Positions 29,434 through 42,826 of a stretch of 64,000 nucleotides of DNA are shown here, in pieces. The position numbers and the translations under genes are program-made. This DNA is from Bacilli bacterium. GTDB lineage: Bacteria; Bacillota_I; Bacilli_A; RF39; UBA660. The stretch is from positions 750-64,749 of the forward strand of contig JBJEDW010000083.1 of the NCBI GenBank assembly GCA_051872415.1, given 5' to 3'. How positions within the stretch are numbered: position 1 is the first letter of the stretch; every line of letters starts with the position of its first letter. The notes under the pieces are model-generated. The model saw only the letters and a program-made list of their open reading frames with translations, did no database searches and was not told the DNA's origin.

Positions 29434-29825
29434 TTATTTTTTTAAATCTTTTTTCAGTTTTGTTGTAGAAATTCCTTCAGTTCTATCTAAGTAAACCACT
29501 TTACAGAATTCTTTTAAATATTCAAATTTTTCACTACCTGCCCAATCGCTTCCCATAACTATTGTATCAACATTGTATTTTTTTACATCTGATAACTTTT
29601 GTTCCCAATTTTCCTCTGGTATGACTAAATCTACATATCTTATTGCTTCTAACATATATTTCCTAGTCTCGTAATCATAATATGTTGTTTTCCTTTCAAT
29701 TGATTGAATTCATTTGTGGAAAGTGCAACAATTAAGTAATCACCCATTTCTTTAGCTCTCTTTAACAATCTTATATGCCCATAATGAAGTAAATCATATG
29801 TACCGTAAGTTAGAATTGTCTTCAT
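29434..29825 (-). pseudogene. tagD: Glycerol-3-phosphate cytidylyltransferase interrupted by a 1-nt frameshift
   Basis: The N-terminal ORF (29825->29649) reads MKTILTYGTYDLLHYGHIRLL... and carries the HxGH motif. The C-terminal ORF (29655->29434) reads MLEAIRYVDLVIPEENW...RTEGISTT. Adding one A to the A4 run (plus-strand TTTT 29688-29691) gives a continuous product collinear with B. subtilis TagD as I recall it. Confidence 0.8.
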
Positions 29826-29948
29826 TTGTGTACCTCCTTAAACAAAATTTAAAATTTCTATAAAAGCAAATATGGTATTTAACTTTTTAAATCTTGATAT
29901 AAATATTTAGACATATTAAAACATATTTCTACCATTGCTTACATTTTT

Positions 29949-29976
29949 ATTATACCATTTTATATAAAAATGTAAA
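29949..29976 (-). promoter_or_regulatory. Putative sigma-A promoter for the tagD-galE-fusion-gene unit
   Basis: On the minus strand: TTTACA, 16-nt spacer, TGgTATAAT (extended -10). About 120 nt upstream of the tagD ATG. Confidence 0.4.
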
Positions 29977-30162
29977 TGTTTAGTTGACGTTTAAAATGAA
30001 AAAGCATATTTCATAGTAAAAAACATATTTTTAAACAAGATTATTTTACTGTTTTTATGTATTTTTATTTCAAGAATTTCTATATAATTTTTTATATTTT
30101 AAAAAGTGAATATTTATAATTAAAAATGAGAGTACTATTATTTTTGACGAGAAGCAATTAGT

Positions 30163-31179
30163 TTAAGAAACAAAAAATCTTTGGATAAATTTAAATATTT
30201 TTATTCTAAAAAAGTCAATTATAACACAAACTATAAAAACTGAAATAACTGAAATAATTAGATTAACAATGAATAACTTGTCTGTATAATAAGAGGAACA
30301 ATTGAATATTCCCTGCCATATATATTTTGATATAAAAGAATTCATGTGAATAATATATATAGAAAAAACAGATACAGAAAGTTTATTAATAACTTTATTA
30401 ACAATACTACTCTTTATGTTAAGTTTAGAAAAAAACAAGAAAAAACATACTGCTCCAATAATATTAAATAACGAATTATAGCCTAGAGTATTAAAAAACC
30501 TTTCATTTAAAAAATTAGAAAATGTTATAAACTGAGAAAACATAAATATAAGAAAATATAAACCAGCAGGTCTAGTATTAACCTTGTATTTGCAAATATA
30601 AGCACCAATAAAATATAAAACAATAAACATAGTTATACCATATCCATTATCCTTAACAGTACCAATTTGAAAAAATGTAGGAAGAATAGAAAAGAAAAAG
30701 AGCGTAATAATAATTAATGTTCTAAATTCTTTTCTGTTAATCTTTTCGATAAATCTATTTAAGTATGGAATAAGCAAGTACAAAATAACATATGTAATTA
30801 TAAACCAAGCACCACTATTTTTCATAAATAAAGCATCTGTAAATATCGAAATATCAAAAAGCTTAGGTTTAAACAGAACAACCCCTATTGTGATTGAAAA
30901 TAAATAAAAAAAGTAAATTAAAACAAGTTCTAAAATTCTTTTGCATTTTATTTTTTGTTTTTTGCACATAAAATAACCTGTTATAATAACAAAGCAATCT
31001 ACTGCTATTATAGAAAAGCTTTCAATAAACCTAGCTAAATAATAATTAAAATAACCTTCAGGAATATTTTTAACATCAAGTGCTCCTCCTAAAGAAACAC
31101 CTAAATAATGTAAACTAAGTACCATAATAATAAGTACAATTCTCAATAATTCAAAATTAGATTGACGCTCTTTTGTCAT
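30163..31179 (-). CDS. Acyltransferase family 3 membrane protein (putative polymer O-acetyltransferase)
   Basis: About 10 TM segments. The N-terminus RQSNFELLRIVLIIMVLSLHY is typical of acyltransferase-3 proteins. Confidence 0.75.
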   Translation of the reverse strand: MTKERQSNFELLRIVLIIMVLSLHYLGVSLGGALDVKNIPEGYFNYYLARFIESFSIIAVDCFVIITGYFMCKKQKIKCKRILELVLIYFFYLFSITIGVVLFKPKLFDISIFTDALFMKNSGAWFIITYVILYLLIPYLNRFIEKINRKEFRTLIIITLFFFSILPTFFQIGTVKDNGYGITMFIVLYFIGAYICKYKVNTRPAGLYFLIFMFSQFITFSNFLNERFFNTLGYNSLFNIIGAVCFFLFFSKLNIKSSIVNKVINKLSVSVFSIYIIHMNSFISKYIWQGIFNCSSYYTDKLFIVNLIISVISVFIVCVIIDFFRIKIFKFIQRFFVS

Positions 31180-31266
31180 AAATACACCCCACTGAAATCA
31201 ATACCCTATTCTATTCTTAAATTAATTATACAAAAAAAAAAGAACTTGTCAGCACTTTTTTATTTC

Positions 31267-32019
31267 TTAATCTAAATTTTTCATATATTCTTCATATTTG
31301 TCTACTATTTCTTCTGGATCACCATCACCTTTTAAAACACCATCATTTATCCAAATTACCCTATCGCAAAGACTTTTAAGAGTTCTAGAACTATGAGAAA
31401 CTATAATAACAGTTCTATTTTCATCAGAAATTAATTCCTTCATTTTATTATAACTTTTTTGTTGGAATCTAACATCTCCAACTGATAAAACTTCATCAAT
31501 AAGCATTATATCAGTTTCAAGAATTGCAGTTATTGCAAAAGCAAGTTTCGAATACATTCCAGATGAATAAGAGTTTACTGGCTTATAAATAAAATCGCCT
31601 AGCTCTGAAAATTCAATTATTTCATCTAACTTTTCATTTATTTGTTCTTCGCTATAACCAAGTAATAATCCTGAAAGAAATATATTCTCGTATCCTGATA
31701 ATCTTCTTTGAAAACCTACTCCTATTGAAAGAAGAGAAATGGTATTACCATGTAAATCAATTGTACCACTATCGGCTGAAAATATACCTGCGATGGCTCT
31801 TAGAAGCGTTGATTTACCACTACCATTTTTACCACAAATACCTAGAATTTGACCTTTAGGAATTTCAAAAGAAACATCTTTTACAGCATGAAATTCTTTA
31901 GCATTTAATAAATTTTTTATGCCTGACTTTACTAAAGAAAATTTTTTTATGTCTTTGTAATAGATATTTAAATTCTTTACAGTAACTGCTATTTCAGTTT
32001 TTTTCTTAGTTTTTTCCAT
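31267..32019 (-). CDS. tagH: Teichoic-acid/polysaccharide export ABC transporter ATP-binding protein
   Basis: Walker A GKNGSGKST, signature YSSGMYSKLAFA, Walker B MLIDEVLSVGD. Abuts the ABC-2 permease gene. Confidence 0.85.
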   Translation of the reverse strand: MEKTKKKTEIAVTVKNLNIYYKDIKKFSLVKSGIKNLLNAKEFHAVKDVSFEIPKGQILGICGKNGSGKSTLLRAIAGIFSADSGTIDLHGNTISLLSIGVGFQRRLSGYENIFLSGLLLGYSEEQINEKLDEIIEFSELGDFIYKPVNSYSSGMYSKLAFAITAILETDIMLIDEVLSVGDVRFQQKSYNKMKELISDENRTVIIVSHSSRTLKSLCDRVIWINDGVLKGDGDPEEIVDKYEEYMKNLD

Positions 32020-32819
32020 TATCGCATCACCTTTACATAAGTGTTTTCATATTTATAAATAGTCTTTATTCCAATATAAGATAGTACTAATCCTAAAATT
32101 ATCCAAATACTTAATAATAACAAATTAGGTGTTGTTTGATATATTAAAGCATCCCTAAAGAAAGATATTAAAGCTGCTAAGGGATTGTAATCTAGTAAAA
32201 TTTTATTGTATGGTTCTGGAACTCTAGTTGCAAGTGGGAAGAACACTCCAGACATATAAAATAACATCCTTAAAACAATTGGAACTATATTTTTTAAATC
32301 TTCAACAAAAACTCCGAAGTGCATAAGAATAGTAGCTATTCCAAAAGTAATAAGATACAAAGACATGTAGATTGGAATAAAGAAAAGAACATTCCAAGAA
32401 AGTGGTATTTGATATATAATCATACATATTACTACTAAACTAAATGAAATTAAAAACTTAACTGTATTAACAGACATTTTTGTAATTAATAAAATAAACT
32501 TTGGAACATATACTTTAATAACAGTATCACGATTAGCTCTTACTAAACTCACTGCTGAAGTAACTGTTCCTTGAAAGAAATTCCATGTTGTTAACCCAAT
32601 AAAGACAAAAACAGGAAAGTATTCAATTTTTGAATCAAAAACAACAAGCGCAATAAATGTGTAAATAAGCATGAAACAGATAGGATTTAAAAACAACCAA
32701 ATCCAGCTCAAATAGGATCCAGTAACTTCTGCTTTTAACTGAGACTTAGTAGAATAAGCAATGTATTTGGAATATTTTTTCAAATCATTTATAAATCTTT
32801 TTACCATTTTTATCATCAT
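32019..32819 (-). CDS. tagG: ABC-2-type polymer export permease
   Basis: Six TM segments, ~266 aa, and a TagG/Wzm-like layout. Its stop overlaps the tagH start. Confidence 0.8.
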   Translation of the reverse strand: MMIKMVKRFINDLKKYSKYIAYSTKSQLKAEVTGSYLSWIWLFLNPICFMLIYTFIALVVFDSKIEYFPVFVFIGLTTWNFFQGTVTSAVSLVRANRDTVIKVYVPKFILLITKMSVNTVKFLISFSLVVICMIIYQIPLSWNVLFFIPIYMSLYLITFGIATILMHFGVFVEDLKNIVPIVLRMLFYMSGVFFPLATRVPEPYNKILLDYNPLAALISFFRDALIYQTTPNLLLLSIWIILGLVLSYIGIKTIYKYENTYVKVMR

Positions 32820-33420
32820 CCTTTTTTATTTTGCTATTTTCATATTCTTTTGGAGTATTAAAATCTATTGTATTTTCGTCTACTATAACAAATTTTTTAC
32901 CAATCTGTTTCTTATCAAATTCTAATCCTGTAAATGATTGATATACTTGCCAACCTTTGCAATTTTTTATTTTACCTTCAAGAAACAAATTTCTCACTTT
33001 AGAAACATGTTCTTTAAATAATTTCCCATCTTTAATTTTTATAGCTACTATTGATTTTTTATTTCCAAAAAATAATATATCAAGAGCTTTTTTATTTATA
33101 ATTATATCAATAGTTTCATCTGGATAATATGTATCTCCATATAAGAAACAAATATTATCATCTATAAGTTCTTCTGTAAAACGATCTATTTCTAAAACGT
33201 TGTTAAGGGGTTCATATCTAGTAGCACCTTTTATTTCATATCTTTTATCATGAGATGTAATTATAATTTCACAATCTTTTTCTCTTTCATTTAATTGTCT
33301 TACGGTCCTTTTTATTAAAGGCTCGCCATTAATTGTAATAAAGTGTTTTGGAATATTGTTATAATTTTTCCAGCGTGTACCCTTACCATCACACATTATT
33401 ATATATTTCATATACATCAC
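32785..33420 (-). CDS. Putative nucleotidyltransferase (GT-A/NTP-transferase fold)
   Basis: N-terminus IIMCDGKGTRW resembles the G-x-G-T-R nucleotide-binding loop of sugar/alcohol-phosphate cytidylyl- and nucleotidyl-transferases. The rest is unrecognised. Confidence 0.45.
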   Translation of the reverse strand: MMYMKYIIMCDGKGTRWKNYNNIPKHFITINGEPLIKRTVRQLNEREKDCEIIITSHDKRYEIKGATRYEPLNNVLEIDRFTEELIDDNICFLYGDTYYPDETIDIIINKKALDILFFGNKKSIVAIKIKDGKLFKEHVSKVRNLFLEGKIKNCKGWQVYQSFTGLEFDKKQIGKKFVIVDENTIDFNTPKEYENSKIKKDDDKNGKKIYK

Positions 33421-34545
33421 CTAATTACTTATATTTTTCATTATATAGTCTACTATCAATTTTGTAGAATTACCTAAATTCTTTGGTAAATATTTCTTTC
33501 TAAACTTTTGATAAGATATATTATCGTAAGCATCATTTTTAATTATTTTAAATAAATCTTTGATATCTTTTGATGTACAAGTTGGAAGAACTTTTGTAGC
33601 ATCTAAATTTATACCATTCTCGCTCATATACTTATCATAATCATAAACATAAAAAAGAACTTTTTTGTTTAAAATTGCAGCTTCTAAACAAATTGATGAA
33701 TAATCCGTTATTACATAATCTGCTACTGTTAATAATTCAATATTTTTAAATTCTGGGCAATCATATATAACATCATGATTAAATTCAAGTGGTTGATTGG
33801 GATGCCCTCTTACAATAAGTATAAAATCATCTTTGTTATATTCTTTAAACATTTTAGTAGGTCCATCTACATTATATTTTCTAAAAGTTGGAACATAATA
33901 TACAATTTTTTTGTTTTTAAATTCTGGATATTTGTTTAATACTTCTTCTTTAAATTTATTCTCATTATTTAAAAGATAATCTATCCTAGGAAGTCCATAA
34001 TGTAACAAAACATCTTTTCTTACATTAAATCCAGCTTCATAAAATTCATCAAAAGCTGAACCTCCTGCTATTATATTGGTATAATTTTTATGCATACACA
34101 TAAGCTTTGCTATTTTACTATTTCTTCCAGAAACAGCATCCAAAGTCTGATAACCAGACTTTTTTATTTTACCAATAGAATGCCATATTTGCAAGACTAT
34201 TAAACTTTTTTTATGATTAAGAATGCAAACTGGTATACAATATGAATCAATAATTGCCATTTTAGATGTTGCTAAATACTTCATTTGTTTAATTATAATA
34301 AAAAAGTATTTTATATAACTTAATAATCCCTTATCTATTCTCTGACAAATAAATTTCATTTTTATACTAGAATCTCTTTTTTGTATTTCATCTCTTATCA
34401 TAGCAAAATCAATACTTATTTCATTAGTTTGTCTACTTATAAATACTATTTGCTTTTTATCTATTGGAAGTAACTTTAAAAAAAAGTATATAATTTTTAA
34501 AAAATATTTAAATGCCAAAATTAAAACAAATTTCATATAAATCAC
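33421..34545 (-). CDS. TagB/TagF-family CDP-glycerol glycerophosphotransferase
   Basis: WHSIGKIKK...YYVPTFR...ITDYSSICLEAAILNKKVLFYVYD matches family motifs and the N-terminal domain of the 1100-aa fusion. Confidence 0.75.
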   Translation of the reverse strand: MIYMKFVLILAFKYFLKIIYFFLKLLPIDKKQIVFISRQTNEISIDFAMIRDEIQKRDSSIKMKFICQRIDKGLLSYIKYFFIIIKQMKYLATSKMAIIDSYCIPVCILNHKKSLIVLQIWHSIGKIKKSGYQTLDAVSGRNSKIAKLMCMHKNYTNIIAGGSAFDEFYEAGFNVRKDVLLHYGLPRIDYLLNNENKFKEEVLNKYPEFKNKKIVYYVPTFRKYNVDGPTKMFKEYNKDDFILIVRGHPNQPLEFNHDVIYDCPEFKNIELLTVADYVITDYSSICLEAAILNKKVLFYVYDYDKYMSENGINLDATKVLPTCTSKDIKDLFKIIKNDAYDNISYQKFRKKYLPKNLGNSTKLIVDYIMKNISN

Positions 34546-34696: not shown

Positions 34697-36202
34697 TTAG
34701 TCTTTTTTTGTTATTATTTCTTTATTTTTATTGTAAATTTTTCTTTTTAATACTTTGAAAAAGTTATACTTTCTGATTATTAAAACTTTGTTTTTAGAAA
34801 TAGTAATCATCTTATTTTTTAAACGAATATATCTTTTTGTTAAATTAATTCTTTTATTATCAATAATAACACTTGGTTTATAAATAAGTTTGCTTTCATT
34901 AATAATTGAGTAAAATCCAAGCTTTGTTTCTTTTTTATCTAACTCTATCGAAGTGGAAAAACTTTTTACATTATTCATGTCATCTCCACAAAAAGATTTT
35001 CTATTTTTATCATTAAGAGGAGAAAGATTAACAGAATAAGTTTTGCCAATTGTATCAATATATAAATGATCTATAGGAAAGTAAATAGATGTTTTTATTG
35101 TTCCTTTTAAAGTTAGTTTATTTTTATTAAAGGACGTGCTTTCTATATTTAAATTATTTTTCCCATTTATTTCTCCGATTTCTTTGTCTTTGAAATAAAT
35201 TATGTTATTGACAAGTTTTAAATCTTTGTTTATTTCATTTTCATATTTTAACTTTAAAAGATATAATTTAGTATCTACTACTACTTTATTGGTATTTACT
35301 ATAACTTCATCATCTAATTGTTTAATTATCTTAATTAGGTTATTTTTATAATCTTTTTGGACATCAATTGGGATGTTAGAAGGAACTTCTTGCCCTACTC
35401 TATATTTTATAGCATTAATTAAGGCATACTCTATATAAGGAATTATCTTTTTATATTTTTTCTTTGAATAATCTATTAAAAATTCGTAATAATACTTAAC
35501 TGTATCAGTATAAGCTTCGATTGCTAAAGTCTTATTTTGAGTACTCGAAGAAGAATCAAATCTTTTTCTTATATGATAAACACAATCTTTAAATATTCCA
35601 TATTTTTCTTTTTCTAAAATAATTTGTGTTATATATTTAGCGTCTTCTGCATACTTCAATCTTTTATCAAATTGAAATTTTTTAGCAACATCACTCTTTA
35701 TAAAAGTTGAAGCAACACTCATTTGAATAAAATCTGGATTCTCATTAATAGAAATAACTCTATTACCATCATCGTATTTAAAATCTAATGAATGGACATT
35801 TTTTTTGTTTTCAAAATATTTTTGCCTACAACTAACCACATCTATTTCATTTTTATTTTTCTCAAAAAAAGCAAATACTTTTTCAAATGTATCTAAATCC
35901 CAAATATCATCACCATCAAAAAAGTTTATATATTTGCCATTTGCTAGACTTAATCCAACATTTCTAGCAGTAGATACTCCTTTATTTTCTTGTCTTTTAT
36001 AGATTACATTATCAGGATATAGTTTAAGATATTTTTCACAGATTTTTTCTGAATTATCACTACTTCCATCATTAATTAGAATTAGTTCAATATTTTCTTT
36101 AAATCCTATTGATTGATTTACAATTGAACTAAGAGCTTCGTCTAGAAATAATTCTAGATTATAAATTGGTACAATTACCGAAAAATTATATTTATATTTC
36201 AT
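34697..36202 (-). CDS. GT2-family glycosyltransferase with an extended C-terminal domain
   Basis: FSVIVPIYNLELFLDEALSSIVNQS...LINDGSSD...FFDGDD are canonical GT-A/GT2 motifs. Confidence 0.8.
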   Translation of the reverse strand: MKYKYNFSVIVPIYNLELFLDEALSSIVNQSIGFKENIELILINDGSSDNSEKICEKYLKLYPDNVIYKRQENKGVSTARNVGLSLANGKYINFFDGDDIWDLDTFEKVFAFFEKNKNEIDVVSCRQKYFENKKNVHSLDFKYDDGNRVISINENPDFIQMSVASTFIKSDVAKKFQFDKRLKYAEDAKYITQIILEKEKYGIFKDCVYHIRKRFDSSSSTQNKTLAIEAYTDTVKYYYEFLIDYSKKKYKKIIPYIEYALINAIKYRVGQEVPSNIPIDVQKDYKNNLIKIIKQLDDEVIVNTNKVVVDTKLYLLKLKYENEINKDLKLVNNIIYFKDKEIGEINGKNNLNIESTSFNKNKLTLKGTIKTSIYFPIDHLYIDTIGKTYSVNLSPLNDKNRKSFCGDDMNNVKSFSTSIELDKKETKLGFYSIINESKLIYKPSVIIDNKRINLTKRYIRLKNKMITISKNKVLIIRKYNFFKVLKRKIYNKNKEIITKKD

Positions 36203-36214
36203 CCTAACACCTCT

Positions 36215-37345
36215 TTAATTATTTACTGGAAGTTCCCATTTTTCATTTGTTTTATTTTCTTTTTTCAACTTTTTGTAATTAATTAGTTTTTCTAAGTCTT
36301 TTCTTTTTCCACCTTCATCAGTTATTTGTTGTCCTAAAAACTGAGTTTTTCCATTTCCTTCAACTATCAGAGGATTACCATCTTTATCAATAGCAACATC
36401 CCATCCAATATACCTAGTTTTATCAAAAGCAAGTGCAGCATCTTTTGCCAAAGAAACTGCTTTTTCCCAAGATGGAATTTTAAAACCTTTTATTTTAATA
36501 TTTGTATCAGGATGATACTCGTAAACAGTATTATTTTCATCTTTGCCATCTGTTATTAATTCTCCTGTTTCAGGATTTATTCTAGCAAACATTCCTCCTG
36601 CTCCACCATTATCTACAAATGAAGAACCACGACCAATTTTTATAAATGGAAGATGAATAAAAACTTGATCATTTTCATCTCGATAAGTAACAATTCTTAA
36701 AGTATTTAAAGATTCTGGGTGTAGAGAAGCCATTTTTTCATGCTGAATAATTCTTTCTTCTAAAATGACATCTCCATCTTCTAGTAAATAAGAGAACAAA
36801 GTTTTTGGGTTTTTAAAGTCTTTGCTATCAATTAATTCAATTCCCTTTCCAAAAGAAGAGTCAATAGGTTTTTTAACGAAAACTGGATATTTTTTTATAA
36901 ACTTTTGAAATTCAGTATAATTATTCTCACCAATTTTTATTAATTCTCTTTTATAAAATTTCTTTAATATTTCATAAGATTTATATTTATCGTTTAAAAT
37001 TTCTTGTCCTTCTTTTTCTCCAAGTAAATATAAATAATTTTGTCTGTTCATATTAGCAATAAAATTTTTTCTTTTAAAATGGCACTTATTCTTAAAACCA
37101 AATAGAAAATATTCTTTAAAAGATAAATTATAAAAGACACGGCAATAGATCATATCTTTTTTTAAGCGTTTTTTATCTTTTTTAGAAAGATTAAAAGATT
37201 TTGTATATTTTTCTATTGTTTCTTCCACTATTTCTTTTCTTTTTTTTGTAGATAATCTATACAAACTATCAAAAACTATTGGTTTAAATAGTATTGATTT
37301 TTGTGCTAATTTAGTGAGAAATTCTCGTTTTTCTTTTCTTGTCAT
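36215..37345 (-). CDS. ATP-grasp enzyme (sugar-transfer-associated clade)
   Basis: Motifs KKPIDSSFGKGIELI; LEERIIQHEKMASLHPESLNTLRIVTY; GRGSSFVDNGGAGGMFARINPETGEL; HPDTNIKIKGFKIPSW; IVEGNG. All are shared with two paralogs in this window. Confidence 0.75.
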   Translation of the reverse strand: MTRKEKREFLTKLAQKSILFKPIVFDSLYRLSTKKRKEIVEETIEKYTKSFNLSKKDKKRLKKDMIYCRVFYNLSFKEYFLFGFKNKCHFKRKNFIANMNRQNYLYLLGEKEGQEILNDKYKSYEILKKFYKRELIKIGENNYTEFQKFIKKYPVFVKKPIDSSFGKGIELIDSKDFKNPKTLFSYLLEDGDVILEERIIQHEKMASLHPESLNTLRIVTYRDENDQVFIHLPFIKIGRGSSFVDNGGAGGMFARINPETGELITDGKDENNTVYEYHPDTNIKIKGFKIPSWEKAVSLAKDAALAFDKTRYIGWDVAIDKDGNPLIVEGNGKTQFLGQQITDEGGKRKDLEKLINYKKLKKENKTNEKWELPVNN

Positions 37346-37359
37346 ACTTCAAACTCTCC

Positions 37360-39363
37360 TTACTTAATTTCATTGAAAGATATATTATTTTCTTTGGCAA
37401 AAAAGGCGGCATAAGATTCTTTTTTACCATAAATAACAACGTTTTTACTATTTTTAAAGGCATGTTTGTCGATTGTTTGTACTGTCTCAGGTATAACTAC
37501 TTTATTTAAATTTTTGCATTCTGCAAAAGCAAACTGTTCTATGTATATTAATGAATTAGGCAAAATAACTTCTTTTAGATTATCACAATTATAAAATGAT
37601 TTTTCTCTTATTCCTTTTAGTTTACTATTAAATGTCACTTTTTCTAAAGAACTACTATCAAAAGTTCTAGGCTTTATAACTGATAAGTTTTTAGGCAGTA
37701 TTATTTCTTTTATATTTTTATCATTTAAAAACAGTTCTCGTTTTAATTTAGTTACATTTTTTCCTTCTAATACACTAGGAACTACTATTTTTTTATCTTT
37801 TTTCAGGCATTTAGTCACTGTGATTTGACATGGGAAATTATAAAACTCATAATCTTTTTCTGTTACTATTTTATAATCAGCTTCTCCAATATTAACTGCA
37901 TCACTCATATCTGTACCAAAAAGCATATCAATACTATCAGTTAAATGCATTCCATGTGAACCTTTAAATAAAATAAGATCTCCAGGCTTTATTATTTTTT
38001 CAATATAATCGTGCATCTTTTCTCTGTTTTCAAAATATTTAACATTCTTTTTTATATTTTTATATTTCTCATAGGAATATTTTGTTTCATTTCCAAAAAA
38101 TATCATTTCTTGAATATCATGACCTGCTAAATTCTTTCCAATTTTACGATGAATTTCTTCAGAAATCTCTCCCATTTCTTTTACATCTGCAATTACTGCA
38201 ATTTTTTTAGAATTTTTGTCCAGTTTTATAATATCAAGAGTTTTAGCAGCTGTTTCTATTGAATCAAGCGAAGCATTATAACAATCTGCAAAAATTTTAT
38301 ATTCCCCAACTTGAAATAAGTTATCTCTCATACCTGTTGTATGATAATTTATTAAACCTTTTTTTATTTTTGAAGAATCAATTTTTAAATATTTAGCAAG
38401 GGCATATGCAGCTAAGGCATTATATATATGATGTTCCCCTATTACCTTTAGTTTTATCTCTTCTTCATTTTTTTCTAAATTATCAACTACCGTAAAAGTT
38501 GTACCTTCGGCAGTTAACTTTATATTTTTTGCATAATACATTGCATTCTGATCTTTTATCGAATAAGATATAACTTCTTGTTCAAATTCTAAGTTTCTAA
38601 GTACTGAATCATCATAATTTATGATAGCAAGTCCGTCTTTTTTTCCATATTTTGAAAGCAATGTCTTGTATTTAGCGATATTTTCACGAGTCTTATAGTG
38701 TTCTATATGAGAATCTAAGATATTAGTATAAATAGCTATATTAGCCTCAAGCATAAGAGCACATTCTTTTATTAAAAATTTAGATGCTCCAATTCCTACT
38801 TCTTGAAGATAAACTTTATTAAAATAATTAAGTTTTTTTATATTCATAGCAATCTTAAAATGAGAATTACTATTTCCTTGAGATACAACTAAAGCATTCT
38901 TTTTATACTCTTCTCTTAATACAGAGGCAATAATATCTTTAGTTGAAGTTTTTCCGATTGATCCGGTTACTGTTATTACATAAGGATTTGAAACTTTTCT
39001 AATATAAATCATAACTTTTGAAAACTGATGTAAGTTTTTAGTAATCACAATATTATTACAGTTTTCTATTGGTTCTTCTGAAAATATACATAATGCATTT
39101 TCTTTAATTTTCTTTCTTGTTGGTTCATCAAAGCCATTTAAGGTTCGACAGAACATAACAAAATTAGGTTCTATTTCTAACCTACTTCTTGTTATATTAG
39201 TTACTCTTTTATTTTGCAATTTTTTTAAATTACTGGGAACTTCTACATCGATAATATTACATATTTTCTTTAAAGTTAACTTTTTCTTATTATCAAATGC
39301 TCTCTTTTTTAAATTTATAATAAACTTTTTAATAGGTTGTGGAACATACTTTTTTAAACTCAT
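37360..39363 (-). CDS. MurF-like Mur-ligase-family protein fused to a C-terminal BspA-type leucine-rich-repeat domain
   Basis: P-loop VTGSIGKTSTKD, MurF-like FADCYNAS, and a C-terminal ligase domain (DVKEMG...). Residues ~520-667 are LRR units (EIILPKNLSVIKPRTF / EVILPNSLIYIEQFAFAECKNL / VVIPETVQTIDKHAF). No signal peptide. Confidence 0.75.
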   Translation of the reverse strand: MSLKKYVPQPIKKFIINLKKRAFDNKKKLTLKKICNIIDVEVPSNLKKLQNKRVTNITRSRLEIEPNFVMFCRTLNGFDEPTRKKIKENALCIFSEEPIENCNNIVITKNLHQFSKVMIYIRKVSNPYVITVTGSIGKTSTKDIIASVLREEYKKNALVVSQGNSNSHFKIAMNIKKLNYFNKVYLQEVGIGASKFLIKECALMLEANIAIYTNILDSHIEHYKTRENIAKYKTLLSKYGKKDGLAIINYDDSVLRNLEFEQEVISYSIKDQNAMYYAKNIKLTAEGTTFTVVDNLEKNEEEIKLKVIGEHHIYNALAAYALAKYLKIDSSKIKKGLINYHTTGMRDNLFQVGEYKIFADCYNASLDSIETAAKTLDIIKLDKNSKKIAVIADVKEMGEISEEIHRKIGKNLAGHDIQEMIFFGNETKYSYEKYKNIKKNVKYFENREKMHDYIEKIIKPGDLILFKGSHGMHLTDSIDMLFGTDMSDAVNIGEADYKIVTEKDYEFYNFPCQITVTKCLKKDKKIVVPSVLEGKNVTKLKRELFLNDKNIKEIILPKNLSVIKPRTFDSSSLEKVTFNSKLKGIREKSFYNCDNLKEVILPNSLIYIEQFAFAECKNLNKVVIPETVQTIDKHAFKNSKNVVIYGKKESYAAFFAKENNISFNEIK

Positions 39364-39379: not shown

Positions 39380-40444
39380 CTATTTTATCAAATTATGATA
39401 TCTATAAAAATCTCCAAGAGGTTTATTCTTTTGTCCGCCCCAAAGCTGAAGTATATTAACACCAGAAGAGGCATTTGCTTCAATAATACAGATTCCTTTG
39501 TCAGTTAAAAGCACATCCCAAGCTACAAAGTTTAAATATGGGAATTTATTGGCTAAGTCTACAATTTCTTTTTTTATTTTATCCCAGTTAGGAACTTTAA
39601 CTCCTTCGATAGGATTTTTGCTATCAGGATGAATTTTGTATTCATTAGTATTATGTAAACATTTAGCACTGCTAAGCTTACCAGTTTCTAAATCAACCTT
39701 AGCAACTAAACCACCCATACTACCATTATCTACAGGTATAGTTTTCTTTGTTCCTATTCTTTGAACTGCAAAATAAAGTATAAATTTTTCAGTTTTTGGA
39801 TCTTTAAAAGTAACAAGTCTTAAAGTATTTGAAGTTTTGTCATATAACTTATTCAAATACTCATTTTGCTCTATACTTTCACATATGAAATAGTTTTTTT
39901 CACGTTCAAAGTAATTAATTATTTCATCTTTGGTAGTTTCTTTTTCATTTAAATAATATTTTTTATCTTTGTAAGCAAAAGTTGCTATTCCATTTCCTTT
40001 ACCACTATCGATTGGTTTTGAAAATAATTTTTTTTGTTTTTCTAAAAGTTTTACTATATCTTCAGGAGTACTTATATCATAATCAAAACTAGAAATAGCC
40101 TTATTTTGCTTTAAACAATATATAGTAGGAACATATACATATTGCTTTAATAGTTCAGTAGTCACAATTTTATTATTTAAAATAAACTTATAGTTTCCAT
40201 TTATATATCTTGATTTATACCAATCAAATTCAGATAAATATTCCTTCTTTCTCTTGCTATTCAAGTCATACAAAACAACTTGATCTGCAATGTAACCACC
40301 ATTTATATTCCAATATAGTCTTTTAAAGAAAGGAACTTTCATATGAGATTTAGCAAATAAAATACGAACTATCCATAAAAGAGCAAGTCTTGCTTTTCTT
40401 CCTAAATAATCATTAATTCTGCGTAAAGTTTTCATTATTATCAC
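39380..40444 (-). CDS. ATP-grasp enzyme (paralog 2)
   Basis: Motifs SKPIDSGKGNGIATF; ICESIEQNEYLNKLYDKTSNTLRLVTF; GTKKTIPVDNGSMGGLVAKVDLETGKL; HPDSKNPIEGVKVPNW; IIEANA. Confidence 0.75.
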   Translation of the reverse strand: MIIMKTLRRINDYLGRKARLALLWIVRILFAKSHMKVPFFKRLYWNINGGYIADQVVLYDLNSKRKKEYLSEFDWYKSRYINGNYKFILNNKIVTTELLKQYVYVPTIYCLKQNKAISSFDYDISTPEDIVKLLEKQKKLFSKPIDSGKGNGIATFAYKDKKYYLNEKETTKDEIINYFEREKNYFICESIEQNEYLNKLYDKTSNTLRLVTFKDPKTEKFILYFAVQRIGTKKTIPVDNGSMGGLVAKVDLETGKLSSAKCLHNTNEYKIHPDSKNPIEGVKVPNWDKIKKEIVDLANKFPYLNFVAWDVLLTDKGICIIEANASSGVNILQLWGGQKNKPLGDFYRYHNLIK

Positions 40445-42826
40445 CTATTTCTCCCTACGATCTATAAATTTAAATAATTTATGTGGCATACGTTTATCGT
40501 AACCATATTTTTTCTTTTTTTCTTCTACTTTTCCTAATAAGTATTCTATTGAATGAGGTTTTAATCTTCCTATTTTCATATAATCTGGATAACGATTTAT
40601 TTCTGGAAATTTCATTCCATCTTCAGTTATAGCTATATCAAAACCAAAGTATTCAATTTGTTTTAGAGACTCTGCTATTTCTAAGATATCTTTTACAACT
40701 TTATCCCAATTTGGTATGTAACCTTCTATTGGCAAATGTGTATCCGGGTGCTCTTTGCAAGGAACTATTTTTAAATCATCTGTTATTATCAAAGCATCAT
40801 GAAAGAATCCTGTTTCTTCATCTAAACTTACAAATATTCCACCAGCTCCTATATTATCAACAGTACCAGTCTTTTTTGAACCAAAACGCATATAAGCATT
40901 ACCGATAATCGGAGTTTTACCATCTTTTTTAAACACAATTATTCTGATAGTATTAACTGAACCATCATAAATTTTATTTAATACATCATGTTGTTTGATA
41001 TATTCAGTTACTAAATACTCGTTAGTTTTATCAGATAAAATATCAATTACATCTTCTCGAGTTGCTTCTTTAAGATTAAGATATAATTTGTTATCTTTAT
41101 ATGAAAGTCTATAAAATCCTTCCCCATGAGAACCCTTATCACGTTTTAAAGCTATGTCCTTTTCTTTTTTTACAAGATTTATAATATCATCATAAGTATT
41201 ACCATAACCCCTAGGACAATCCATCATAGGAATTATTTGATTTTCTCCTTGTTTTAAACTAATATAATAATAATACTTAGGAAAGAATTTATTGTAATCA
41301 CTTGCAATATATTTAATAGTTATCTTATCCTCAAACCAAATTTTATAATAATTGTTTATGTGTCTTAACCATTTATACTCAAAATCTGAAATAAAGTTTT
41401 TATAATTATCTTTTGTTATATTATATTGTGCTAATCTATATGAAAGAAAGCCGTGTCTATAAGCCCAAAGTTTAGTTCTAATAGGAATATTCTTATTTTC
41501 TATAAAATCATCTTTCATATCCCTTAACCATCTAAAACTTATATAAGGTACTAATCCTTTTGGATAACAAGTCTTAGCAAATAATTTACATAACTTTAAC
41601 CAAACCTTTTTTTTGAAGATTTTTAATTTAAATTTAGTATTTTTATAAAGATCTCGTTTATGATTATATTTATAAATTAAAAAATTATTAAAATCTTTAT
41701 CAAAAGGCACCGCTGTACAATACTCAGGATTATTAAATATATTTATTATCTTTATTTCCTTATCGGTTATTGTAAGTTCTACTCCTGCCATTTCTATTTG
41801 AGGAATAGTTTTAAATATTGACTTAATTAATTCATTAATCTTATCAAAGTTTTTTTCTACCAAAGCAATCAATTTATCATTATTTGGCATTTTTTCTGAT
41901 TTTGTTATTTTTTTACCATTTTTTGTGGTGCAAATCTTAAATTTACCATCACTGGCATTGAAATAAATACGCGATTTTTTATTTTTATCTAAGTTAATGC
42001 TTTTGTGATTTTGGTCATCGTCATTTTCCAAAACTTGTTCATCATTTGTAGCTTCAACATTAAATTCATTATCAATTATATATTTACCATTGACTTCGGC
42101 ATATATTTCTCCAATAAGTGGCTCTAGACCATTTTTATTATATACTTTTAAAAATAGTTTAGCTTCTTTTCCATTTAATAATAATGATTTATTAGGTTTA
42201 ACTTTTTCTCGTAACACTAAACTTGTTACATTCTTTGCATTTCTTTTTATATAATTATCAATTTTTTCAATAGAAGACTCTTTTCCATTCATAAAAAACT
42301 TGTTATTTTTATATTCTAGTAAATCTTTGCTAGTATAATCTGAAGACATTAATATAACACTTTTTTTACTTTTTATTAGCTCGTAAAAACTTTCTTTATC
42401 ATCTTTTAAATTTTCTCTTAAAGATACAATCTTTACTTTACCATCACGTAAATATAATTGATAATAAACCTCTACTAAGTTTTTTCTATAATTTTTTAAT
42501 ATTTTATCAGTAGTAACAATATCTGCTAACCATTTATTATATTTTCCGTTAACACCATAAAGATAAAGATATTGTTTATAGGAAATATTTTCTTTTCTAT
42601 TATATTTAGTTATGTTTAGAGTTTTTACCTGATTAGGCAAATAACCATAGTAATAGGATTTTAGCTTAAATAGAATTGATGAACCATTATTTTTAAAAAA
42701 ATCTTCTATTACTTCTGATTTCCATTTTATAGCTGCTCTTACAACATAACCATTATATATCATACGAGAAGAAATCAAAGCTAAGAGTCGCCTTTTTATT
42801 TTACTGTTATCTTTCATTAATATCAC
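40445..42826 (-). CDS. Double-module ATP-grasp protein (degenerate N-terminal module, intact C-terminal module)
   Basis: The C-terminal half carries RDKGSHGEGFYRL; VTEYIKQHDVLNKIYDGSVNTIRIIVF; GSKKTGTVDNIGAGGIFVSLDEETGFF; HPDTHLPIEGYIPNW. The N-terminal half has similar length and spacing but lacks the VDN..GG and G-x-G loops. GTG 42826 abuts the xseB stop; ATG 42817 with AGGTGA upstream is an alternative start. Confidence 0.7.
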   Translation of the reverse strand: MILMKDNSKIKRRLLALISSRMIYNGYVVRAAIKWKSEVIEDFFKNNGSSILFKLKSYYYGYLPNQVKTLNITKYNRKENISYKQYLYLYGVNGKYNKWLADIVTTDKILKNYRKNLVEVYYQLYLRDGKVKIVSLRENLKDDKESFYELIKSKKSVILMSSDYTSKDLLEYKNNKFFMNGKESSIEKIDNYIKRNAKNVTSLVLREKVKPNKSLLLNGKEAKLFLKVYNKNGLEPLIGEIYAEVNGKYIIDNEFNVEATNDEQVLENDDDQNHKSINLDKNKKSRIYFNASDGKFKICTTKNGKKITKSEKMPNNDKLIALVEKNFDKINELIKSIFKTIPQIEMAGVELTITDKEIKIINIFNNPEYCTAVPFDKDFNNFLIYKYNHKRDLYKNTKFKLKIFKKKVWLKLCKLFAKTCYPKGLVPYISFRWLRDMKDDFIENKNIPIRTKLWAYRHGFLSYRLAQYNITKDNYKNFISDFEYKWLRHINNYYKIWFEDKITIKYIASDYNKFFPKYYYYISLKQGENQIIPMMDCPRGYGNTYDDIINLVKKEKDIALKRDKGSHGEGFYRLSYKDNKLYLNLKEATREDVIDILSDKTNEYLVTEYIKQHDVLNKIYDGSVNTIRIIVFKKDGKTPIIGNAYMRFGSKKTGTVDNIGAGGIFVSLDEETGFFHDALIITDDLKIVPCKEHPDTHLPIEGYIPNWDKVVKDILEIAESLKQIEYFGFDIAITEDGMKFPEINRYPDYMKIGRLKPHSIEYLLGKVEEKKKKYGYDKRMPHKLFKFIDRREK

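Follow-up and report, generated by a model that had tools for sequence, protein, structure and literature searches.

A MurF-clade ligase fused to a BspA-type leucine-rich-repeat solenoid in a TagF/TagGH locus of a Bacilli bacterium

This work deals with a gene on the reverse strand of a 64,000-nucleotide stretch of DNA (the window; positions 750 to 64,749 of contig JBJEDW010000083.1, assembly GCA_051872415.1) from a Bacilli bacterium of the RF39 lineage. Its 667-aa product joins a Mur-type amide ligase to a C-terminal leucine-rich-repeat (LRR) domain of the BspA type. The genome, a metagenome assembly of 1.18 Mb in 87 contigs, is ~87% complete. Our analysis reveals that the Mur-LRR fusion represents a real and conserved protein family, which is old and of single origin, and that the gene lies in a locus of the teichoic-acid type.

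Architecture and affiliation of the ligase

The open reading frame starts with an ATG located ~9 nt downstream of a Shine-Dalgarno sequence (AAAGGAG). Pfam assigns residues 132-323 to Mur_ligase_M (PF08245, E 1.3e-33), residues 353-470 to Mur_ligase_C (PF02875, E 2.6e-14) and residues 535-642 to LRR_5 (PF13306, E 1.8e-26; 93 bits versus a gathering score of 27.7), and the same scan gave no match to PF01225. Since the hydropathy maximum is 1.09 in a 19-residue Kyte-Doolittle window, below the value of 1.6 taken as threshold for transmembrane and signal segments, the protein contains neither a signal peptide nor a transmembrane segment. These results agree with a preliminary description of the sequence, which had noted the absence of both segments, placed Mur-ligase motifs at about residues 100-500 and recognised the BspA-type LRR at the C-terminus. 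The AlphaFold2 model, built from 33 family sequences, reaches a mean predicted local distance difference test (pLDDT) of 91.9 and a predicted template-modelling score (pTM) of 0.84. Residues 498-665 are modelled as a regular beta-solenoid including its caps (pLDDT >93), so that the LRR fold expected for this region is indeed predicted. One strand lies near residues 525-540 and the following ones at 553, 575, 598, 621 and 643, with a spacing of 22-23 residues; the three to four repeat units counted earlier have thus to be revised to about six strands plus caps. At the entry of the solenoid, a linker helix (486-493) precedes three strands (498-502, 505-509 and 514-519). The C-terminus reads ...NNISFNEIK, which replaces the ending given previously, and the cap that it belongs to is also found in proteins where an ATP-grasp domain carries an LRR.

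The other extremity of the protein has its own peculiarities. The N-terminal helix (residues 1-27) has a net charge of +29.6 per 100 aa and is strongly basic throughout the subclade of the window's ligase, far less in a second clade of the family (P0032-P0041). It is followed by a KKLTLKKICNIIDVEVPS motif. According to profile alignment (hhalign 92.4%, E 5e-7), long ATPgrasp_ST proteins have this motif at their N-termini as well, whether or not they carry an LRR, the pairwise BLAST match being marginal. The motif, with the very basic helix in front of it, may serve the enzymes of this pathway as a shared element for docking or for association with the membrane.

Both fold and sequence relate the ligase to MurF. 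The best Foldseek match is the MurF structure 4qf5 (E 2e-31; target-normalised TM-score of 0.84-0.85) over ~470 aligned columns, a span that covers all three MurF domains, domain 1 included. Together with the lack of an export signal, this upholds the initial view of a cytoplasmic, MurF-like enzyme. As in MurF (TIGR01143; structures 4qf5, 4cvm, 1gg4 and 2am1), we find the three-domain fold, the P-loop and the catalytic Glu/His/Asn/Arg motifs. The P-loop TGSIGKTS, the QE metal site, N214/H219, GEHH..NA, R346, D360-x-Y-N363 and K467 align with their MurF counterparts, and G134, G137, K138, T139, E188, N214, H219, N315, R346, D360, N363 and K467 are invariant in 33 family sequences. Because these motifs align and stay invariant, the protein looks like a catalytically competent, ATP-dependent amide ligase, whose acyl-phosphate chemistry is probably that of MurF.

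However, several features separate it from housekeeping MurF. The best NCBIfam model is murF (TIGR01143) with 216.7 bits, under its cut-off of 288.6. The genome encodes a canonical murE-murF pair on another contig (C68) and two further Mur ligases, and the Mur-LRR ligase is an extra paralogue outside the murE-murF context, which adds an LRR_5 solenoid and a basic N-terminal helix and belongs to a teichoic-acid-type locus. Domain 1 of MurF binds the acceptor. This domain is the fastest-diverging part of the Mur-LRR family, with 14-24% identity in distant members, which argues for acceptors that are unlike UDP-MurNAc-tripeptide and differ between lineages. In a maximum-likelihood tree computed on the ligase part alone (66 sequences, housekeeping MurFs with the genome's own included), every LRR-bearing ligase falls in one clade (46 rows; support 95/89), which stands apart from the housekeeping MurFs as a sister clade. 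An LRR-less paralogue of 492 aa from a relative of the same genus (genome G003, contig C46, L099:3620-5098) is nested inside this clade (support 92/91), indicating a secondary loss. The fusion is thus old, of single origin and mostly kept, the LRR being ancestral to the ligase clade. As a side observation, the gene of the LRR-less paralogue adjoins that of a class A penicillin-binding protein and is far from ATP-grasp or TagGH genes.

The preliminary description had proposed to look for the same combination elsewhere. In a collection of 5.8 billion proteins, at least 60 clusters among the 120 best matches contain both PF08245 and PF13306, and they are collinear over their full length from 97% down to ~28% identity. 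Identical Mur-LRR proteins occur on many independent contigs, one of them of 2.75 Mb (cluster P0047), and five out of 17 genomes of the genus encode a full-length orthologue. The residues at which ligase and LRR parts join (F482, G483, T484) hardly vary. Beyond the genus, close relatives are rare: 249 other genomes sampled across the class gave no match at E <=1e-55, with only four candidates scored per genome, and a P-loop-seeded scan of named genomes returned almost only housekeeping MurF and no new fused loci. The top list of an exhaustive search of representatives was mostly made of giant multi-repeat LRR proteins; it also revealed two larger relatives (P0270 and P0387, see below). Our literature search found no paper on Mur ligases with BspA-type LRRs or on ATPgrasp_ST systems, and the public records name these proteins just "Mur ligase family protein" or "leucine-rich repeat protein". 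The combination, first described as unusual, is so among characterised enzymes, yet it already forms a sizeable family in public databases under such generic names.

A teichoic-acid-type locus

All genes from position 42826 to ~25089 lie on the reverse strand, the gaps on either side of the ligase gene measure 16 and 14 nt, and no terminator-like site was found on the coding strand of the block. The ligase gene is probably in operon with the neighbouring ATPgrasp_ST genes and the GT2 glycosyltransferase gene, within a variable TagF/TagGH locus. The order is AG793, AG354, Mur-LRR ligase, AG376, GT2, a TarB/TagF-like transferase, a nucleotidyltransferase, TagG, TagH, acyltransferase-3, a split tagD, GalE and a 1100-aa TagF-GT1-GT2 protein (Table 1). 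AG354, AG793 and AG376 are the only ATPgrasp_ST genes of the genome. AG793 contains its ATPgrasp_ST half twice: the N-terminal 470 residues, which match no Pfam family, correspond to a diverged second copy (E ~2e-13), possibly a degenerate, non-catalytic module. A hidden LRR in this half, which had been considered, is thereby rejected.

Table 1. Positions of the Mur-LRR ligase, its parts and the surrounding genes in the window
Feature	Position	Strand	Basis or remark
Whole 667-aa open reading frame, MurF-clade ligase plus LRR_5 solenoid	37360..39363	(-)	ATG start, Pfam/NCBIfam, AlphaFold2, Foldseek
N-terminal basic helix, residues 1-27	39283..39363	(-)	helix 9-27 in model; charge
~40-residue motif, residues 21-59 (...KKLTLKKICNIIDVEVPS...)	39187..39303	(-)	hhalign to N-termini of long ATPgrasp_ST proteins
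MurF-like domain 1, residues 28-110	39034..39282	(-)	Foldseek alignment to 4qf5 spanning domain 1
ATP-binding middle domain, residues 111-345	38329..39033	(-)	PF08245
P-loop TGSIGKTS	38944-38967	(-)	aligned MurF motifs
Mur ligase C-terminal domain, residues 346-482	37918..38328	(-)	PF02875; invariant D360, N363, K467
Linker helix followed by the solenoid's N-terminal beta-hairpin cap, residues 483-519	37807..37917	(-)	model, pLDDT 79-95
About six BspA-type LRR units, residues 520-646	37426..37806	(-)	PF13306; modelled strands
C-terminal cap, residues 647-667, KKESYAAFFAKENNISFNEIK	37363..37425	(-)	helix 651-658 and strand 662-665 in model
Two ATPgrasp_ST genes upstream of the ligase, AG354 and AG793	39380..42826	(-)	
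AG793, tandem ATP-grasp, 793 aa	40445-42826	(-)	
AG376, ATPgrasp_ST downstream of the ligase	36215..37345	(-)	PF14397, E 8e-53
GT2 glycosyltransferase (GT2_501), split partner of AG376	34697..36202	(-)	PF00535
Teichoic-acid core: TarB/TagF-like transferase, nucleotidyltransferase, TagG, TagH, acyltransferase-3, split tagD	29434..34545	(-)	
Split tagD	29434-29825	(-)	58-aa frame with HxGH motif plus 73-aa frame in another frame
TagF-like + GT1 (GT4-type) + GT2 protein, 1100 aa	25089-28391	(-)	

One block gathers TagG/TagH, a TagB/F-type glycerophosphotransferase and the split TagD, as in wall teichoic acid systems that depend on an ABC transporter. Candidate genes for priming and attachment are present on other contigs, with two PF00953 (TagO-like) and two PF03816 (LCP) members. 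In relatives of the genus, the slot is the same, between nusB-xseA and spoIVB, and holds other versions of this core, which a PGA_cap gene often completes. More broadly, an ATPgrasp_ST gene lies within 10 kb of the family member in eight of 12 contexts examined, and two of the 12 show Ddl together with an LCP gene and either a racemase or VanY.

Natural fusions and constraint on the LRR

The relatives offer a series of gene fusions that link the neighbours to one another. In genome G003, the position of the ligase in the locus is held by a 1028-aa Mur-LRR_5-ATPgrasp_ST protein (contig C8, L100:7555-10641), whose ATP-grasp part falls in one subfamily with AG376; the same type of fusion is seen in P0121 and P0124. 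In two other genomes (G007 and G001), the next downstream gene encodes an ATPgrasp_ST-GT2 fusion (a protein of this type is found at locus L097). AG376 and GT2_501 of the window are the split equivalents of the one in G007 (44% and 40% identity), AG376 being orthologous to its ATP-grasp half. Besides, the family and its partners include PGA_cap-Mur-LRR, SH3-PGA_cap-Mur-LRR, Mur-LRR-VanY, ATPgrasp-LRR, ATPgrasp-LRR-PGA_cap and PGA_cap-LRR-ATPgrasp proteins, and at one locus a separate PGA_cap-LRR_5 gene directly follows the Mur-LRR gene. The largest forms have approximately one LRR per catalytic module, as in the tandem Mur-LRR-Mur-LRR protein P0387 (1474 aa) and in the LRR-PGA_cap-Mur-LRR protein P0270 (1393 aa). 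An adaptor or targeting domain behaves in this way: the LRR accompanies several classes of enzymes that act in one pathway, with one copy for each catalytic module.

These arrangements also bear on cellular location. No export signal was found in 52 family members checked, the sole exception being a hydrophobic N-terminal stretch in P0047, and the position of the LRR between two ATP-dependent domains in the fusions implies that it is cytoplasmic. In the clusters of relatives, the PGA_cap (CapA-family) domain starts at residue 5-20 (L096:12667-13854, L097:8421-9608 and L100:5148-6374), which leaves no CapA membrane anchor and makes these proteins probably soluble. They may resemble the peptide epimerase MslH (PMC8179263).

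Across the family, with LRR identities of 27-76%, the domain keeps a fixed repeat number with almost no insertions or deletions, and none within the group of 664-674 aa. In the subclade of the window's ligase, a K/E ladder is conserved at the exposed positions of the strands and the loops vary. A ligand site on the concave face that would be conserved family-wide was not seen, the ladder being restricted to the subclade level. The LRR of the window's ligase has a net charge of ~+7.7 per 100 aa against a genome background of -0.3 ± 3.5. In this subclade, a basic LRR goes with a basic N-terminal helix, and the members that were sampled (the window and P0029) come from TagGH clusters. Only one other LRR_5 protein is encoded by the genome, a 734-aa product (contig C22:4412-6616) with a prepilin-type N-terminus (KGFAMAELL...) whose gene adjoins that of a GspE-type ATPase; this is probably a pseudopilin with LRRs at its tip.

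Proposed function, alternatives and meaning

On balance, and with some confidence rather than a strong one, we favour the view that the soluble MurF-clade ligase decorates a teichoic-type wall polymer with amino acids or peptides, and that its LRR is an intracellular adaptor. At the cytoplasmic face of the membrane, GT2 and the ATPgrasp_ST ligases would equip the lipid-linked polymer of the teichoic type with an amino-acid or peptide substituent and lengthen that substituent. The MurF-like ligase would then activate the terminal carboxylate as an acyl phosphate and join an amino acid or dipeptide, the LRR_5 solenoid holding it on its partners or on the acceptor. TagGH would export the decorated polymer, which an LCP enzyme would attach to the wall. 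Ddl, racemase and VanY links of other clade members are a hint of D-amino-acid donors, and those with Ddl and VanY suggest a donor of the D-Ala-D-Ala type as in MurF. More tentatively, the LRR_5 solenoids might be per-enzyme adaptors of an assembly line in which Mur, ATP-grasp and CapA/MslH-like enzymes build peptide side chains on teichoic-acid-type polymers independently of ribosomes and non-ribosomal peptide synthetases. Within such a line, which we regard as possible though doubtful, each LRR would bring its own module to one shared destination, which is either an acceptor (polymeric or lipid-linked) or a hub.

As regards the target of the LRR, the ligase may be held either on its partner enzymes (AG376 and GT2) or on an anionic acceptor that is polymeric or membrane-bound, and we give the two about the same weight. 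Docking to partners is favoured by the chain of fusions that leads from Mur-LRR to ATP-grasp and from ATP-grasp to GT2. Targeting to the acceptor or the membrane is favoured by the retention of the LRR where no ATPgrasp_ST gene is nearby, and by the basic LRR and N-terminal helix of the subclade. Of the original proposal that the LRR docks the enzyme to a partner or to a polymer, the part that gains support is the adaptor behaviour inside the cell, on the basis of the fusions and of the ancestral state of the domain.

Several observations weigh against decoration of a wall polymer by an LRR-guided ligase. The LRR is acidic in the P0032-P0041 clade, of which the sampled member (P0035) is an orphan; its charge is therefore not a family-wide trait, and binding to polyanions was rejected as a general property of the LRR in the family. 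Two of the 12 contexts are orphans of this kind, where the ligase gene is found among housekeeping genes with no polymer genes within 10 kb. In the single-chain model of the Mur-LRR-ATPgrasp protein P0121 (pTM 0.61), the Mur-LRR half is confident, the ATP-grasp half has a pLDDT <50 and no confident arrangement of LRR and ATP-grasp emerges. In the window itself, tagD (glycerol-3-phosphate cytidylyltransferase) is split by a frameshift, which reflects either an assembly error at a homopolymer (29650-29700) or a real loss of CDP-glycerol supply that may impair the locus; an orthologous cluster, that of G011 for instance, has an intact tagD. Finally, no UDP-glucose/ManNAc dehydrogenase (PF00984) was found in the ~87% complete assembly, which leaves a uronic-acid acceptor unsupported and makes it unlikely that the carboxylate comes from the usual uronic-acid route.

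Comparison with known systems gives some perspective on the proposed polymer decoration. In the capsule of Campylobacter jejuni HS:2, Cj1438 combines a GT2 and a TupA-like ATP-grasp that amidates a sugar carboxylate on the growing polymer, which is exported by an ABC transporter (PMC11800379). The ATPgrasp_ST-GT2 fusions of the genus relatives, and their split counterparts in the window, are reminiscent of this organisation. Unlike Cj1438, the ATP-grasp is of the PF14397 type and not TupA-like, a Mur-type ligase and LRR modules are added, and no uronic-acid supply was detected in the genome, so that the uronic-acid acceptor conceived after Cj1438 was set aside. The poly-gamma-glutamate synthetase PgsB/CapB-CapA and the cyanophycin synthetase CphA1 likewise exemplify Mur-family ligases working outside peptidoglycan synthesis and paired with PGA_cap (CapA) or ATP-grasp, and such pairings recur in the loci and fusions of the Mur-LRR family; TIGR02068 also gives our ligase a weak match. 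However, its best match in sequence and fold is MurF, and the window's own cluster contains no PGA_cap gene and no CapC-like gene was seen. In MurT/GatD, the lipid II isoglutamine synthase, the substrate of the Mur-family enzyme is also a lipid-linked intermediate bound to the membrane, and the enzyme needs a docked partner protein; it matches our ligase weakly in sequence. MurT has no LRR, however, and works with a glutaminase partner in an amidation rather than an amino-acid addition. As for the solenoid, repeat sequence and predicted fold are shared with BspA/TpLRR-type LRR_5 structures (4fs7, 4gt6 and 6mlx; E 2e-21 to 2e-17). In contrast to secreted or surface BspA proteins, it comes as a fusion with ATP-dependent enzymes and lacks an export signal.

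Other explanations have to be considered, starting with the nature of the ligase. It could act as an alternative MurF that adds an unusual, ATP-grasp-made dipeptide to UDP-MurNAc-tripeptide, in which case the stem peptide would be remodelled and no polymer decorated. MurF is its closest relative in sequence and fold over all three domains, some clade members have Ddl, Asp/Glu racemase or VanY next to them or include a VanY domain themselves, and the LRR-less paralogue of G003 has a class A penicillin-binding protein as neighbour. We nevertheless consider this option unlikely, given the score below the murF cut-off, the separate clade, an acceptor-binding domain 1 that is the least conserved part and escapes PF01225, and a gene that is embedded in TagF/TagGH loci and patchy in the genus. 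The Ddl-type contexts, moreover, also have an LCP transferase, pointing to a secondary polymer. An artefact of assembly or frameshift uniting two genes might be suspected from the fragmentation of the metagenome assembly and from the frameshifted tagD nearby. It is effectively refuted by the recurrence of the same collinear architecture in independent assemblies over the whole range of identity, by its presence in five genomes of the genus and on the 2.75-Mb contig, and by a junction that is both conserved and modelled at high confidence.

The role of the LRR can be questioned as well. It may be a passenger shuffled in from a surface-protein gene, useful for folding or solubility and without specific binding. 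This would fit an ordinary BspA-type module that is 30-42% identical to the repeats of giant extracellular proteins, that lacks strongly conserved residues on its concave face family-wide and that was lost in one nested member of the clade. A mere passenger is quite improbable for a domain kept down to ~28% identity with a fixed number of repeats and no indels in close relatives, which is also attached to three further classes of enzymes in this pathway, once per module in tandem fusions. Within the subclade, its exposed strand residues are also more conserved than its loops, and its charge tracks the genomic context. A more radical possibility is that the LRR is an extracellular or surface adhesin, released by non-classical export or lysis, with an inactive or moonlighting Mur part. 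LRR_5 domains are typical of surface proteins, the only other one in the genome is on a prepilin-type and presumably extracellular protein, and SH3_3 or PGA_cap domains, frequently located outside the cytoplasm, are present in some relatives. Yet we deem this very unlikely for a protein devoid of signal peptide and transmembrane segment, in which the residues for ATP binding and catalysis are all in place and do not vary; in addition, natural fusions enclose the LRR between two ATP-dependent domains, and the PGA_cap proteins of these loci have no CapA-type N-terminal anchor.

To conclude, if polymer decoration is the true function of the Mur-LRR ligases, a relative of MurF would serve some gut Gram-positives outside peptidoglycan synthesis, where a secondary wall polymer would receive peptides that are built by enzymes. 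The chemistry of the wall would thereby gain a new class, which matters for phage receptors, for recognition by the immune system and for the paralogy of antibiotic targets. It would also give BspA-type LRRs a scaffolding role inside the cell and call for caution in the automatic annotation of LRR_5 proteins as "adhesins". Besides, the fused, split and LRR-less forms found in nature are as many natural experiments, which make the adaptor idea directly testable.

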